Assembly (NCBI GenBank): GCA_046300675.1
Contig: JBKCLO010000055.1
Coordinates: forward strand, 3,345-67,344
Source of the DNA: Ignavibacteria bacterium
GTDB taxonomy: Bacteria > Bacteroidota > Ignavibacteria > Kapaibacteriales > Kapaibacteriaceae
Length of the DNA stretch: 64,000 nt
Direction of reading: 5' to 3'
Each line of letters begins with the position of its first letter. Within the stretch, counting starts at the first letter, position 1. The notes under the pieces are model-generated. The model was not told the origin of the DNA. It did no database searches and saw only the letters and a list, made by a program, of their open reading frames with translations. Below are positions 30,962-40,912 of the stretch, in pieces. Made by a program: the position numbers and the translations under genes.

Positions 30962-31737
30962 TGAATGGTAGGGTGTTGAGAAGCGGCGAACACATCAAAT
31001 TTATAACTAACTGCACATAAGTTCAATCCGTGTGCAGGTACGATGATAGGAGCTCGTTGTCTGCTCTGCGACTGCAGCAGTTGGCGAACATCATCAAACG
31101 TGAGTTGTCCACGAGCAGCCGACATAGCAACACCGACGATCGCTCTGCACATCCCGTACACGAAACGATTAGCGCGTATACGAATCTGCACAAGGTCGCC
31201 TTCAATCATTCCTTCGCAGACGGCAACGTTGCAGATGTATGAACGTGTACCAGGGTTATGCTTTGAGATGGCAGTAAAATCGTGCGTGCCTTTCATCACA
31301 GACAGAGTTTCTACGAGAGTATCTGCGTGAAATGGAACTTCAGGATGCCATGCGTGGTGACGTTGAAAGACATTCTCGGTTAGTGCTATCGAGTAGGTGT
31401 ATTCGCGCCAAACGGCGTCGAAGCGCGCATGGAATTCATCAGGTACTACGGCCACATTCTTGATACGGATGTCTTTTGGCAGGCGAGTATTGAGTGCTAC
31501 TGCGATCTTATCGATGGGGATGTTGTGTGCCAGCTCGGTAAGCTCAACATGAGCAACCTGGCCTGATGCATGAACACCAGAGTCTGTTCTGCCCGCCCCA
31601 TGAATGATGCAGTTCTGTCCGAATGCAGATGTGAGCGATTCCTCCACGCGCTGCTGGACGGCAATGCCGTTGCGCTGACGCTGCCATCCGGCGTAGGACG
31701 TTCCATCATACTCTATGTGCAGTGCCAGGCGTTGCAT
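30958..31737 (-). CDS. truA: tRNA pseudouridine(38-40) synthase
   Basis: IEYDGTSYAGWQRQ, GAGRTDSGVHASGQ, FHARF, ANRFVYGMCR. Confidence 0.96.
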   Translation of the reverse strand: MQRLALHIEYDGTSYAGWQRQRNGIAVQQRVEESLTSAFGQNCIIHGAGRTDSGVHASGQVAHVELTELAHNIPIDKIAVALNTRLPKDIRIKNVAVVPDEFHARFDAVWREYTYSIALTENVFQRHHAWHPEVPFHADTLVETLSVMKGTHDFTAISKHNPGTRSYICNVAVCEGMIEGDLVQIRIRANRFVYGMCRAIVGVAMSAARGQLTFDDVRQLLQSQSRQRAPIIVPAHGLNLCAVSYKFDVFAASQHPTIQ

Positions 31738-34700
31738 CAGACAAAATTAACGACTTGTCCAACTTCTAACGTATCTCGTCCTCCAGCGTATGATAGATGA
31801 CCGTGATACCCACCAATGATGTTGTTCAAGATAGTAGCTTCGTGCACGACGATGCTCCTCCACTGAGCAATCCCGGTTACGGTACCTTTAAGCATCAGCG
31901 CTGAGGCACGAAGTTCCTGCTTGTATTGCTGCCGTACCTGCGGCGGGACAACACACTGAAGAAAGCCGGTCTCGTCCTCAATTGTAACAAAGAGTACCCC
32001 CTTAGCTGTTGGTGGAGCCTGACGAAGCATCACAATGCCTGCAGTAGTAATCGTAACAGGACGCTCGATAGACATTCTATGGACGGTTTCGATAGATCGT
32101 ATCTCCATGCTGTTCATTATCCTACGAAACAGGGTCATTGGATGCACACGTGCTGAACCATGTGTTACATAGTCGTACGCCAATCGCTCTTGAGCACGTA
32201 TCTCCGGAAGTTCAGGAATCTCATGTTCATGGATAAAACTTTCTGTAAAAAGACTCCCGGTTTCAGACATCTGCTGTCGTTGTCGAACCACACCAATAAT
32301 CCACATCGCTTTTCGTTCATCGGGCTCAAGAGTGGACAATGCCCCGGATAGTGCTATGCTCTCGAGCACATCACGTGCAATGTTTGGTAGTCTGCATACA
32401 ACGTCCTCCACACTCGAAAATGGCATCTTGGCACGCTCAAGAATGATCTGACGAGCAATGGGTTCACTTACATCGCGTATAGATGTAAGGGGCTTTCGTA
32501 TTGCCCAAGTACCTTGTGACGACTGCTCAAGACTGTAGCGTACATTTGAGCGCACTATATCTGGAAGACGTGTCTCCACATGGAACCTACGTGCCTCTTC
32601 TTCGATGGTCATAAGATTGTACATACCCGGACGATGCTGCATAAATGCTGCCATGTATGCAGCGGGATAGTGCGTTTTAAGCCAGGCACTCTGGTAGACG
32701 ATCTTCGCAAAAGCAGCTGCATGGGATCGGCAGAATCCGTACCCTACAAAATGCGATACGATCTCGTAGACCTGTTCTGCACTTGCCTGATCGACACCGC
32801 GTGTTGTAGCCCCTTGAATAAAGACGTCTCTCATTGAAGCCATCAGTAAACGGTCTCTATTCTTTGATACCAGGGAACGAAAGTCATCGGCCTGATCTAA
32901 TGGCATGCCTGCAAAGCGATGGGCTATCTCTAGCACCTGCTCCTGAAATAACACAATCCCTAGGGTGTCTTCTAGCAGCGGTTCAAGATCTGGATGTACA
33001 TATTCGATAGGGGCCTTTCCAGTGCGTCTGGCGATGTATGGATGTACCATTCCACCCTGTAGTGGTCCGGGTCTGAACAACGCAACCTCGGTAACGAGGT
33101 CGTCGAAGCATTCTGGCTGATGCTTAGCAAGAAGATGCATCTGACCTTGCGATTCTATTTGAAATACTCCAAGCGTCTTTCCACTTCGTATCAATGAGAA
33201 CGTAGACTTGTCGTCAAGAGCTATGTCATCAATATGTATGTTATGCCCGTGATGTATCTCGATAAGCTCTACAGACTCGCTGATGCATGCTAGCATGCGA
33301 AGACCAAGTACATCAAATTTTACAAGCCCCATTGCTTCGACGTCATCCTTATCGAACTGTACAATTGCGACGCCATTTGCAGAACGCTGTAGCGGTGTCA
33401 GCATGGTCAATGGTTTACTCGAGAGCACCATACCACCAGAATGCTGTCCGAGATGTCGTGGATGCTCCACTAAGAGGCCTGCAGCACGAATGAGAATATC
33501 GAGCATCGGGATACTGCCAACAACACTTGTAAGCTCCGGGCGGTAGTGCTCTATGTCGTGATTGCTCCATGAAGGAACGCTCTTCGAGAGTTTGCTTACA
33601 GTCTCCATTGGCCAGCCTAGTGCTTTTGCAGCATCACGAACTGCCATGCGTAATCGATAGGTGATCAGTGTTGCTGTCATCGCAGTCTGCTCAATGCCAA
33701 AGCGCTCTTCCATCCATGACAGTATCTCTGAGCGTCTGTCGCTATCAAAGTCTACGTCGATATCTGGGGTGCCTTTTCGCCCCTTGTGCAAAAACCTTTC
33801 AAACAATAGATGATGTTGAATCGGGCATACACCGGTGATACCCAGCACATAGGCAACGATAGAATTCGCCGCTGAACCACGTCCGCTACAGCGAATGCCG
33901 CGTCTTCGTGATTCGGATACTACTTCGTGGACTACAAGAAAGAAATCGCAGAGTTCGAGTTCTTCCAATACCTGAAGCTCATGCTCTAGCTGCTCTGAAG
34001 CACGCGATCGTAGAGCAGGCTCTGAGTTCTGATAGCGGCCATCATAGCCGTTGCTGACAAGTTCTCGCAATACTTCAGACGAGGTCCTTCCCTCAGGTAT
34101 ACGAGCTGAAGGAGGGGTTATCCTTTCAGGTAGAATGTCGAATGAGCATGTTGACAGGATTCTATCAAGATTCTGGTATCCGGCCTCGAATGGTAGTAGT
34201 GCTCTGATCTCTTGCTCTGAACGTAAACATTGTTTGTCGTTTACCGGACGCAACGGATGTGGATCATGTATTGTGATACCTTCACGGATACATACCATAA
34301 GGTCATGTGCTGCATAATCATCACTGCATGCATAACGCACATCCTGGGCTATCACATAGGGCAGCGACATAGATTCTGATAATGCAACAGCTTTGCGTGC
34401 CCTATGCAGTGCCCAAGGTCTGGCATCATGCCCTATGCCTATGTATATCTGAGCAGTATTGAGCTTTGAGCTGATCCGTCGTATCACCGAATCATCAGCA
34501 CTTGATGAGTGTACCACAGCTAAGCAGTCATGAAGTGGGCATGCATCAAGTGCTTCACCAGTTCTGCTGCCCTGATGAAGTTCTGTTAGCAGCATACACA
34601 GCTGATGATAGCCCTGTTCGTTCTGGCAGATGAAGCTTACAGTGCCTCCTTCGTATTGGATGTCCGCTCCAATGATGGGCCGGATTCCAACTTCACGACA

Positions 34701-34859
34701 AGCACGCTGCAGGCGTACAGCTCCGTAGACACCCATCGCATCGCTTAAGACAATGGCAGTATGCCCTAGGCGAGCGGCTTGATGGGCAAGACGTTCTGGT
34801 GATGAAGCCCCATCGAGGAATGAAAAATGAGAATGGGTATGTAATGATCCGAATTCCAT
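31737..34859 (-). CDS. dnaE2: Error-prone DNA polymerase DnaE2 (ImuC)
   Basis: PHP start LHTHSHFSFLDGAS, GRGSAANS, catalytic PDIDVDFD, PRHLGQHSGG, KFDVLGLRML, OB-fold GVLFVTIEDETG. Start set at ATG 34859. Confidence 0.93.
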   Translation of the reverse strand: MEFGSLHTHSHFSFLDGASSPERLAHQAARLGHTAIVLSDAMGVYGAVRLQRACREVGIRPIIGADIQYEGGTVSFICQNEQGYHQLCMLLTELHQGSRTGEALDACPLHDCLAVVHSSSADDSVIRRISSKLNTAQIYIGIGHDARPWALHRARKAVALSESMSLPYVIAQDVRYACSDDYAAHDLMVCIREGITIHDPHPLRPVNDKQCLRSEQEIRALLPFEAGYQNLDRILSTCSFDILPERITPPSARIPEGRTSSEVLRELVSNGYDGRYQNSEPALRSRASEQLEHELQVLEELELCDFFLVVHEVVSESRRRGIRCSGRGSAANSIVAYVLGITGVCPIQHHLLFERFLHKGRKGTPDIDVDFDSDRRSEILSWMEERFGIEQTAMTATLITYRLRMAVRDAAKALGWPMETVSKLSKSVPSWSNHDIEHYRPELTSVVGSIPMLDILIRAAGLLVEHPRHLGQHSGGMVLSSKPLTMLTPLQRSANGVAIVQFDKDDVEAMGLVKFDVLGLRMLACISESVELIEIHHGHNIHIDDIALDDKSTFSLIRSGKTLGVFQIESQGQMHLLAKHQPECFDDLVTEVALFRPGPLQGGMVHPYIARRTGKAPIEYVHPDLEPLLEDTLGIVLFQEQVLEIAHRFAGMPLDQADDFRSLVSKNRDRLLMASMRDVFIQGATTRGVDQASAEQVYEIVSHFVGYGFCRSHAAAFAKIVYQSAWLKTHYPAAYMAAFMQHRPGMYNLMTIEEEARRFHVETRLPDIVRSNVRYSLEQSSQGTWAIRKPLTSIRDVSEPIARQIILERAKMPFSSVEDVVCRLPNIARDVLESIALSGALSTLEPDERKAMWIIGVVRQRQQMSETGSLFTESFIHEHEIPELPEIRAQERLAYDYVTHGSARVHPMTLFRRIMNSMEIRSIETVHRMSIERPVTITTAGIVMLRQAPPTAKGVLFVTIEDETGFLQCVVPPQVRQQYKQELRASALMLKGTVTGIAQWRSIVVHEATILNNIIGGYHGHLSYAGGRDTLEVGQVVNFV

Positions 34860-40285: not shown

Positions 40286-40321
40286 AGATACTCCAAAAGT
40301 TATATGTGGACAATTTACAAT

Positions 40322-40912
40322 ATGTCGAATCAATTGACAATACCCGATGCGGAAATATTTTTGATCGAAGGGGCCGATTCTCCATTGCACGGAACGTCCT
40401 TCTTCGATCGACTATTGGCTGAGTTGCCATGGCGTAGTGAGACGATCACATTGTTTGGCAAGACGTATGTCCAGCCGCGAATGCTCGAGTTTTTTGGAGA
40501 CCAAGGCGTTGCCTATACGTACTCAAAGAAGCTCTACAAGGCACGGGAATGGACACCATCGCTTATCGAACTGCGAGCAGTGGCCGAGCAGATTGCAGGG
40601 GCACCATGTAATTGTGTTCTGGCAAATCTCTACCGTAACCAGCGAGACAGCATGGGCATGCATGCAGATGATGAGCCGGAGTTGGGAAGTTGTCCAACGA
40701 TAGTATCAATGAGTTTTGGAGCAACGCGAACATTTCTCCTGCAGCATAAGACCAGACGCGATATCCCAAGAATCCGAATACCGTTGATTTCGGAGAGTAT
40801 TCTGGTGATGAAAGGGCAGACGCAAAAGCACTGGCTGCATGGTATAGAAAAAAAAACGCGGACTCTAGGTCCGCGCATCAATCTTACGTTTCGGAATGTT
40901 CAGATGGGTTAA
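40322..40912 (+). CDS. AlkB-like (ALKBH2/3-type) 2OG-Fe(II) dioxygenase
   Basis: QPR, YTYS, NCVLANLYRNQRDSMGMHADDE (HxD), SMSFGATRTF, WLHGI, RINLTFR. Start set at ATG 40322. Confidence 0.92.
   Translation: MSNQLTIPDAEIFLIEGADSPLHGTSFFDRLLAELPWRSETITLFGKTYVQPRMLEFFGDQGVAYTYSKKLYKAREWTPSLIELRAVAEQIAGAPCNCVLANLYRNQRDSMGMHADDEPELGSCPTIVSMSFGATRTFLLQHKTRRDIPRIRIPLISESILVMKGQTQKHWLHGIEKKTRTLGPRINLTFRNVQMG

Follow-up and report, generated by a model that had tools for sequence, protein, structure and literature searches.

What kind of mutagenesis system is encoded where a regulator with a UmuD/LexA-like protease domain, a shortened relative of ImuB, a protein of 78 amino acids (aa), and the polymerase DnaE2 lie together with no imuA beside them? 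Such a cluster is found in a 64,000-nucleotide stretch of an Ignavibacteria bacterium genome (GenBank assembly GCA_046300675.1, contig JBKCLO010000055.1, positions 3,345 to 67,344), referred to here as the window. An earlier reading of this DNA (the original prediction) had taken the cluster, together with a divergent alkB-like gene, for an undescribed and possibly horizontally acquired system controlled through a new operator. We find that the locus likely encodes a DnaE2 mutasome that is ImuA-less, under SOS-type control, and a member of the catalogued DnaE2X-iPolY-ImuB-C(-RecA) class; its architecture has been published and named, and the cassette is conserved among related genomes.

A cassette of the split-ImuB type

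Previously reported ImuA-less variants have DnaE2 accompanied by an inactive Y-family protein and an ImuB-C that stands alone, frequently together with lexA (Timinskas & Venclovas 2019). A 2026 survey names the DnaE2X-iPolY-ImuB-C-RecA system, regards iPolY together with ImuB-C as "a split ImuB", suggests that ImuA-ImuB-DnaE2 descended from this system, and describes drastically reduced ImuBs that keep the thumb, little finger, and ImuB-C. Damage- and RecA-dependent induction and a need in mutagenesis have been shown for the Deinococcus deserti and D. ficus homologues only—in D. deserti, the cassette made up of lexA-imuY-imuB-C-dnaE2 is radiation-induced, relies on the RecA encoded by the chromosome (RecAC), and is required for UV mutagenesis (PMC8072749). 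RefSeq lists the D. deserti operon, on plasmid P1, as LexA, Y-family polymerase (423 aa), DUF6504 protein (80 aa), and DnaE, and the Abditibacteriota plasmid pIAD-21 has the same four-gene order.

Open reading frame (ORF) listing and profile searches recovered all of the genes named by the original prediction, in the order and on the strands it gave (Table 1), with the Y-family part of ImuB and ImuB-C encoded as separate polypeptides and no imuA adjacent to them. Start codons were assigned from conserved N-termini and from gene calls of homologues, since several listed ORF starts lay too far upstream; the 290-aa regulator ORF listed to 40390, for instance, is over-extended. Scans of the window ORFs with Pfam and NCBIfam (including 35 further ORFs; two giant ORFs at 13929-20753 and 50954-56923 and two 90-aa ORFs were left unscanned) revealed no ImuA, LexA, RecA, or typical ImuB.

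DnaE2 has the Pfam domains PHP, DNA_pol3_alpha, finger, HHH_6, and OB, and scores 855.6 bits against the NCBIfam "error-prone DNA polymerase" model, below its cutoff of 939. Its best plasmid relatives are the DnaE2s of lexA-PolY-DUF6504-dnaE2 cassettes, from Abditibacteriota (43%) and from Thermus and D. deserti (~36%). The 78-aa protein aligned over its full length with D. deserti ImuB-C (hhalign, 97.9% probability, E 4.6e-13) and in part with Sphaerobacter ImuB-C (90% probability). Pfam DUF6504 also matches the C-terminus (residues 449-507) of the canonical 530-aa ImuB encoded in a Sphingobium imuA-imuB-dnaE2 locus. An AlphaFold2 (AF2) model of the 78-aa protein, with a mean predicted local distance difference test score (pLDDT) of 93.6, is all-beta with six strands, and had no significant fold match in the PDB (best E 0.23); an ImuB-C profile likewise found nothing meaningful among PDB sequences. 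This null fold search agrees with the published description of ImuB-C as a beta-barrel without close structural relative (PMC12926913).

Comparisons drew on 26 related loci in total, of which L001-L020 came from contig look-ups and a scan of GTDB species representatives, and L024-L026 were reached via ImuB-C homologues. The metagenome-assembled genomes behind L001-L020 are labelled Bacteroidota, Kapaibacterium, Ignavibacteria, or Melioribacter, with one Patescibacteria; JBEBCJ01, VGVV01, CAYXKK01, and JBIICY01 are examples of genomes that have the cassette. A tblastn map resolved 15 distinct cassettes, seven interrupted between imuB-C and dnaE2 and eight contiguous.

Table 1. Coordinates of the features of the mutasome locus in the window. 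HTH, helix-turn-helix; PWM, position weight matrix.
Feature	Position	Strand	Length, matches, and remarks
dnaE2	31737..34859 (ORF 31737-34895; likely start ATG 34859, giving MEFGSLHTHSHFSFLDG)	-	1040 aa; DnaE2X-like
Dyad TTAC-GTTTT-GTAT(A) before dnaE2	34870..34883	-	Overlaps -10-like TATATT; top PWM score in the window, 22.0 (site among those building the PWM)
DUF2911 protein	ORF from 34916; likely start 34955; end 35791	+	Pfam DUF2911 4.9e-56
PIG-L family protein	35804-38281	+	825 aa; Pfam PIG-L 5.1e-15
DUF6504 protein (standalone ImuB-C)	38284-38520	-	78 aa; Pfam DUF6504 24.3 bits vs cutoff 24.2
Short Y-family homologue (iPolY/ImuY-like)	38527-39486	-	319 aa, or 315 aa from ATG 39474
C-terminal helix-strand of Y-family protein	38575..38667	-	LLPRYAHVMKNVVI, then NPWSVIPEE tail; equivalent to iPolY-wE2X RecA-NT-like motif and conserved tail
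Candidate beta-clamp-binding motif QTLMF	38683..38697	-	Residues 264-268, just past the little finger
Possible secondary site ATAC-GGTTT-GTAT	39453..39466	-	First iPolY codons; 2 mismatches to the 14-mer; 42 bp downstream of main site; PWM 15.4
Dyad TTAC-GTTTT-GTAT(A) before iPolY	39495..39508	-	Overlaps -10 TATAAT
HTH_3 + Peptidase_S24 protein (regulator)	39518..40285	-	255 aa; Pfam HTH_3, Peptidase_S24; XRE-type HTH (~residues 21-62), variable linker, LexA/UmuD-type S24; cleavage site Ala140-Gly141, Ser176, Lys213
Variant site CGAC-ATATT-GTAA	40314..40327	-	Spacer and -10 of regulator promoter; PWM 18.3 (site among those building the PWM); overlaps alkB start codon on other strand
2OG-FeII_Oxy_2 (AlkB-like) protein	40322-40912, or from 40304	+	Pfam 2.3e-33

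A presumed Y-family scaffold without fingers

Profile searches with the window's Y-family protein gave only weak matches to the thumb and little finger, and among PDB sequences a Y-family profile picked up nothing beyond the thumb and little finger of a single DinB. An AF2 model (pLDDT 81.5) matched Dpo4, DinB, and MsDpo4 with probability 1.0 and E-values down to 5e-12, and hhalign paired residues 12-306 with residues 80-390 of Sphaerobacter thermophilus iPolY-wE2X (97.5% probability, E 5e-12; sequence from the supplement of the Nucleic Acids Research 2026 paper), including the "RYG...PWSRIPE" tail. Aligned with its longer relatives, D. deserti ImuY, and Dpo4 (which served as a ruler only), the protein has no counterpart of Dpo4 residues 10-75, the fingers domain; the first catalytic Asp is missing, and Dpo4 D105/E106 stand opposite Gly/Arg. 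Compared with published members, it is short of ~60-80 N-terminal residues, fingers domain included. As judged from these alignments, the protein belongs to the iPolY-wE2X (ImuY) group, with N-terminus and fingers lost and a palm remnant, thumb, and little finger retained; it is catalytically dead and presumably a scaffold.

The 14 close homologues returned by database searches are 312-327 aa long and lack any precomputed Pfam domain. The constancy of this length marks the shortness as a family trait and not as a truncation. When 1.84 billion representatives were searched with a profile, just four full-length representatives of the short form turned up. About 1000 more distant relatives are mostly 360-420 aa long, with ~60 extra N-terminal residues, and some of them match Pfam IMS or IMS_C.

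Two C-terminal elements may account for the contacts of such a scaffold. The pattern Q-x-x-[LM]-[FL], represented by QTLMF in the window, is kept in 14/14 family members, and ImuY and iPolY-wE2X have their counterpart at the same place in the alignment, which makes it a candidate beta-clamp-binding motif. Further on, the C-terminal helix-strand aligns with "LKQRYGTSPIYRVVEVEPWSRIPERR" of Sphaerobacter and "LDRFPDALVRVRWLDPWAY" of D. deserti; the AF2 model places a helix at residues 270-281 and a strand at 286-290 (numbering of P0001, the 315-aa form). By analogy with published work (PMC6511836, PMC12926913), this element would bind RecA.

A putative UmuD-like repressor with an XRE-type DNA-binding domain

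The first gene of the cassette encodes, as originally predicted, an HTH domain joined to a UmuD/LexA-like S24 domain with intact cleavage site and catalytic dyad: none of the 11 regulator sequences compared departs from the motifs VSAG (VSA/GLP), GDSM, and VKRY. Its N-terminus matches HTH_3 (PF01381) and not the winged-HTH LexA_DNA_bind (PF01726), and the protein matches PHROG families of UmuD-like and CI-type repressors. The S24 domain passes the NCBIfam UmuD cutoff (125.6 bits vs 110) and falls below that for LexA (83 vs 111), the LexA match covering the C-terminal part only; with the corresponding domain of D. deserti LexA it shares 29% identity. A GGAG lies 8 nt upstream of the regulator ATG.

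We compared the regulator with the non-canonical LexAs of Bacteroidetes, taking the validated sequences from the supplement of Sanchez-Osuna et al. 2021 (PMC8565304). BLASTP against the C-domains of WP_025606010 and WP_075324850 detected no similarity (E 36 and 41), and the regulator finishes with the S24 core, where the UmuD profile also ends, without the extra C-terminal helix of those proteins. Judging by its domains and predicted sites, the regulator probably works like the Bacteroidetes non-canonical LexAs, with the same 4-N5-4 site format (see below), yet is outside that family.

The C-terminal domain is also strongly conserved: across loci, S24 (residues 131-255) is 89-98% identical, compared with 54-96% for the HTH, 28-64% for the linker, 34-59% for iPolY, and 59-75% for DnaE2. 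Such constraint is unusually strong for a domain of self-cleavage and dimerization. One reading of these numbers is that the regulator is bifunctional, acting when intact as cassette repressor via nTAC-N5-GTAn and, after RecA-stimulated cleavage, releasing a UmuD'-like fragment that joins the scaffold, ImuB-C, and DnaE2 as a fourth mutasome subunit, possibly compensating for the missing ImuA or the trimmed scaffold. The UmuD-level profile score and the family name assigned by the Prokaryotic Genome Annotation Pipeline (PGAP), that of the Pol V autoproteolytic subunit, would fit this idea. However, the conservation of S24 could reflect constraints from RecA*, the dimer, and self-cleavage alone, in Deinococcus, homologous cassettes operate under an ordinary LexA, and no S24 protein is encoded within the operon of the Latescibacterota cassette; on balance, we regard bifunctionality as quite improbable. 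The view developed here is that of a repressor that acts at the DNA and is removed by cleavage.

As to the name itself, PGAP calls the 217-256-aa HTH+S24 family (P0231, P0232, P0257, P0288) [quoted passage not shown]. Typical UmuD is ~140 aa long, consists of S24 only, and accompanies an active UmuC, whereas the regulator bears 130 aa of HTH and linker and neighbors an inactive Y-family homologue; the PGAP name is probably a mis-annotation caused by the UmuD-like C-terminal domain. A further sequence, P0296 from an 860-bp ENA contig, joins an N-terminal winged HTH of the canonical LexA type to an S24 domain that shares 70% identity with the window regulator. We rejected it as evidence of a domain swap—its C-terminal half is near-identical to the regulator of the L004 type, with the join at VVGDSM, and given the short contig it is probably an assembly chimera.

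A dyad element at three putative promoters of the cassette

The 14-bp motif that the original prediction had noticed upstream of both imuB and dnaE2 proved exact at the two sites: the 14-mer TTACGTTTTGTATA lies 10 nt upstream of the dnaE2 ATG and 8 nt upstream of the Y-family ATG (Table 1). Allowing up to two mismatches, the window contains three matches where 0.23 are expected, and 0/100 shuffles reached three. A promoter scan placed the best sigma-70-like promoter of the region (TAGATA-16-TATAAT) at 39520-39493, before iPolY, and found TTGTCA-17-TAAATT before the regulator. In the upstream regions compared, the invariant core is AC-r-TTT-y-GTA, that is, nTAC-N5-GTAn.

The distribution of this dyad follows the cassette closely. 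It stands directly before the Y-family ATG in 14/15 distinct cassettes (in L008 the gap there is just 15 bp), and cGAC-AT(A/T)TT-GTA(A/T) is kept upstream of the regulator in 13/15 loci. Before dnaE2, it is present in 7/7 interrupted loci and in 0/8 contiguous ones. Of 42 matches to the pattern AC[AG][AT][AT]T[TC]GTA on both strands of 287 kb, 35 fall at these three regulatory positions. PWM and pattern scans of the window found no further convincing sites; matches at 13794/13796 (first codons of a GH2 glycosidase ORF) and 37908 (inside PIG-L) were judged to be chance. The possible secondary site in the first iPolY codons, which was outside the PWM training set, scores 15.4, where the maxima of 20 shuffles averaged 13.5 and ranged up to 18.9, and its evidence is weak because its arms coincide with conserved Tyr codons. 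Segmental duplication was considered as the source of the dnaE2 site and rejected, as the upstream regions are alike only over the 14-mer and a few flanking bases.

Could the motif be a promoter or leaderless-start signal only (a -10 or Bacteroidota-like TAnnTTG element), with the HTH-S24 protein regulating something else or itself alone? The motif does overlap TATAAT/TATATT and ends 8-10 nt before the ATGs, no Shine-Dalgarno sequence precedes iPolY (39486) or dnaE2 (34859), both of which start 6-8 nt past the -10-like hexamer, and dyad symmetry does not explain the invariant T-rich spacer and ATTG flank. What a promoter signal leaves unexplained is the symmetry of the invariant core (TAC-N5-GTA), together with the co-variation of the outer arm bases, which yields perfect palindromes of both the ATAC-N5-GTAT and the CTAC-N5-GTAG kind among orthologous sites. 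Moreover, in L025, a more distant cassette from Ignavibacteria whose iPolY is full-length at 402 aa and whose regulator is of the same kind, two perfect CTAC-N5-GTAG palindromes (CTACGATTCGTAG and CTACAATTTGTAG) lie in tandem, 20 bp apart, upstream of the regulator, and in the window the pattern is essentially confined to the cassette and missing from the promoters of ~45 other genes. A signal of promoter function only is therefore unlikely in our view. Rather, we read the dyad element as a probable operator overlapping the promoter, part of whose conservation, especially in the TATAAT/ATTG half, may be owed to a promoter or leaderless-start signal; the spacing to the start codons and the lack of a Shine-Dalgarno sequence suggest that the iPolY and dnaE2 mRNAs are leaderless or near-leaderless. 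As an operator it would not be of a new kind, as had been supposed, since 4-N5-4 dyads are already known for HTH-S24 SOS repressors and the sequence is close to the published TTAC-N5-GTAA.

Other loci showed variations on these upstream regions. L024 carries ATACATTTTGTAG upstream of its regulator, and its regulator-iPolY intergenic region (L024:5604-5757) consists of ~150 bp of tandem 8-nt units (CCGTACTC / CTGTAATC) where other loci have a single dyad. The Latescibacterota cassette, L026, lacks an in-operon regulator; immediately upstream of its iPolY there is instead a LexA box of the canonical form GAAC-N4-GTTC, which lies inside a long palindrome, TATATACTGAAC-AAAC-GTTCAGTATATA (L026:5650-5712). 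In the window, an inverted repeat, GAAACT-N6-AGTTTC (34897-34914), occupies the DUF2911/dnaE2 intergenic region ~14 nt upstream of the dnaE2 dyad. Every interrupted locus has this repeat, L006 with one compensatory change (CTAAACT...AGTTTAG); it may serve as a binding site or form a small hairpin.

Probable splitting of the operon by an insertion in one subclade

The original prediction had also suspected that an insertion rewired the operon, and comparison of the 15 distinct cassettes bears this out. The inverted DUF2911/PIG-L block (34955..38281, plus strand), which separates ImuB-C from dnaE2 in the window, is missing from all contiguous cassettes, where the two genes adjoin (8 related loci), and dnaE2 has its own copy of the motif only where the block is present. 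Interrupted cassettes comprise the window, L001/L010, L006/L015, and L011-L014; those that are contiguous comprise L004/5, with a divergent alkB, and seven without alkB (L002/L019, L003, L008/9, L016-18, and L020). Y-family identity to the window is at least 54% in interrupted loci and at most 49% in contiguous ones. The simplest reading is a single insertion in one subclade; the contiguous arrangement is likely the ancestral order, and the DUF2911/PIG-L block is outside the mutasome. At the junction, the convergent stop codons of imuB-C (minus strand) and PIG-L (plus strand) are 2 bp apart (38281-38286), and no terminator-like structure was found between them; transcription arriving from each side would continue into the opposite gene in antisense.

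A shortened Y-family gene in a disrupted operon might also be taken for a cassette on its way to loss, and the sub-cutoff score of DnaE2 could be read in the same way as the lost fingers and N-terminus. This seems very improbable: all ORFs are intact, the length of 312-327 aa is maintained down to 34% identity with many invariant residues, and the regulatory site is kept before the detached dnaE2 in 7/7 interrupted loci.

Synteny and composition bear on the proposed horizontal origin. With the exception of L008/9, truA lies downstream in all cassettes for which downstream sequence is available, usually along with an M55 peptidase and a radical-SAM gene, and these neighbors are kept across relatives whose Y-family proteins are 34-84% identical. 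Cassette G+C content (0.47-0.49) is mildly lower than that of the flanks (0.508 +/- 0.013), as is G+C at third codon positions. Given the conserved synteny, this dip alone leaves recent horizontal transfer unsupported.

The alkB-like gene adjoins the regulator in the 8 distinct loci that resemble the window upstream and is missing from the other 7/15. In its product, residues 114, 173, and 185 mark the HxD, H, and RxxxxxR motifs; the protein scores 116.5 bits in Pfam, and only 32.8 against a cutoff of 231 for the NCBIfam AlkB equivalog; by these scores the oxygenase is AlkB-like and not an equivalog of E. coli AlkB. Its start codon lies within the regulator's own site, with an intergenic distance of 18-36 bp depending on start choice, which makes co-repression with the regulator plausible. 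The gene is a lineage-specific neighbor, not a defining part of the system.

Taken as a whole, then, an undescribed and possibly horizontally acquired system with AlkB as a component has only a very slight chance of being right. The compositional dip is in its favor, and the literature surveyed contains no description of the cassette in Kapabacteria or Ignavibacteria. Against it stand the published and named architecture, the synteny of truA, M55, and radical-SAM genes across the clade, and the partial distribution of alkB.

Genomic surroundings

Outside the cassette, the window is ordinary chromosome, with infC, rplT, pheS, dnaJ, parAB, ogg, truA, gyrA, and others; parA/parB lie at 20839-22639 and gyrA at 57002-59473. 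The two giant ORFs, both on the plus strand, encode 2274 aa (13929-20753) and 1989 aa (50954-56923). Neither the gene for an Ogg-type 8-oxoguanine glycosylase (26875-27537, plus strand) nor that for a bifunctional-nuclease protein with a UVR motif (63201-63824, minus strand) has an upstream dyad site.

Proposed mechanism and its significance

The directly observed homologies, losses of catalytic residues and fingers, conserved gene order, and distribution and symmetry of the dyad can be combined into a working model. A dimer of the 255-aa HTH-S24 protein would bind nTAC-N5-GTAn dyads over the -10 elements of three promoters—its own, that of iPolY/imuB-C, and that of dnaE2. After DNA damage, RecA nucleofilaments would stimulate self-cleavage at Ala140-Gly141 via Ser176/Lys213, derepressing all three units. 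The dead, fingers-less Y-family protein would then serve as a scaffold that binds the beta clamp through QTLMF and RecA through its C-terminal RecA-NT-like helix-strand, in place of ImuA, while its thumb and the separate ImuB-C beta-barrel would hold DnaE2 for error-prone synthesis. Where the inverted DUF2911/PIG-L genes were inserted between imuB-C and dnaE2, in one subclade, dnaE2 would have been kept in the regulon via its own new promoter and operator.

Several points weigh against this model. Induction, RecA dependence, cleavage, complex formation, and mutagenesis are carried over to this lineage from its homologues, and binding of RecA and the clamp by so trimmed a scaffold is deduced from the conservation of motifs. 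The 3' half of the dyad makes a good -10 element (TATAAT, TATATT) 8-10 nt from the start codons, and the regulator's own site has an imperfect left arm (GAC). Read-through transcription may occur across the imuB-C/PIG-L junction. Finally, the absence of imuA, canonical lexA, and other regulon members applies to the 64 kb of the window.

The locus brings an uncultured Bacteroidota-related lineage into the range of the "split ImuB" mutasome (DnaE2X-iPolY-ImuB-C), which has been proposed to be ancestral, and the lineage offers natural experiments of three kinds. The scaffold is minimal, reduced to a palm remnant, thumb, little finger, and C-terminal motifs, which lends weight to published work that regards thumb, little finger, and ImuB-C as the parts of importance; the regulator would be another independent replacement of the LexA DNA-binding domain in SOS control; and the acquisition of its own operator copy by a gene cut off from its operon would show cleanly how a regulon is maintained. 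Current models are not overturned by any of this; what is gained is mainly testable detail and a corrected PGAP annotation, in which a repressor had been called a Pol V subunit. A bifunctional regulator, if true, would link the Pol V-type and ImuB/DnaE2-type mutasomes.

Comparison with known systems

The closest counterpart is the DnaE2X-iPolY-ImuB-C(-RecA) class, with which the window cassette shares an S24 repressor, a dead Y-family protein with a C-terminal helix-strand and PW(S/A) tail, an ImuB-C of ~80 aa, and DnaE2, all in the same order and with no adjacent imuA. It differs in that the repressor has an XRE-type HTH and not the winged HTH of LexA, the iPolY lacks ~60-80 N-terminal residues and the fingers, two unrelated genes in inverted orientation divide the operon and dnaE2 is preceded by a second regulatory site, and the cassette is chromosomal and belongs to a Bacteroidota-related (Kapabacteria/Ignavibacteria) lineage. 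With the canonical ImuA-ImuB-DnaE2 systems of M. tuberculosis, Caulobacter, and Pseudomonas (and of Sphingobium pYGP1), it has in common DnaE2, an inactive Y-family scaffold, an ImuB-C module, and SOS-type control. Unlike those systems, however, it has no adjacent imuA, its scaffold is 319 aa long against ~500-530 aa, and its ImuB-C is a separate 78-aa ORF where canonical ImuB has it fused.

Among repressors, the Bacteroidetes non-canonical LexAs (PMC8565304) resemble the window regulator in combining HTH_3 with an S24 domain bearing AG, S, and K, and in having 4-N5-4 palindromes (in silico) at their own and translesion-polymerase promoters; the published TTAC-AAATT-GTAA is close to the window's TTAC-GTTTT-GTAT. 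Yet the window S24 is LexA/UmuD-like, with no BLASTP similarity to theirs and no extra C-terminal helix. Canonical LexA shares with the regulator an S24 domain with Ala-Gly site and Ser/Lys dyad, but not the winged HTH. UmuDAb of Acinetobacter and HdiR of Lactococcus are non-LexA S24 repressors of damage-inducible genes. By description, and not by sequence, these offer a parallel in which a self-cleaving UmuD-like or phage-like protein took over repression of an error-prone polymerase; the window protein is set apart by its bona fide Pfam HTH_3 domain and its place as the first gene of a DnaE2 cassette. Relative to the published form of the class, three features look particular to this lineage: an XRE-HTH/UmuD-like S24 repressor replacing LexA, a scaffold without fingers, and a split operon with a second operator/promoter.

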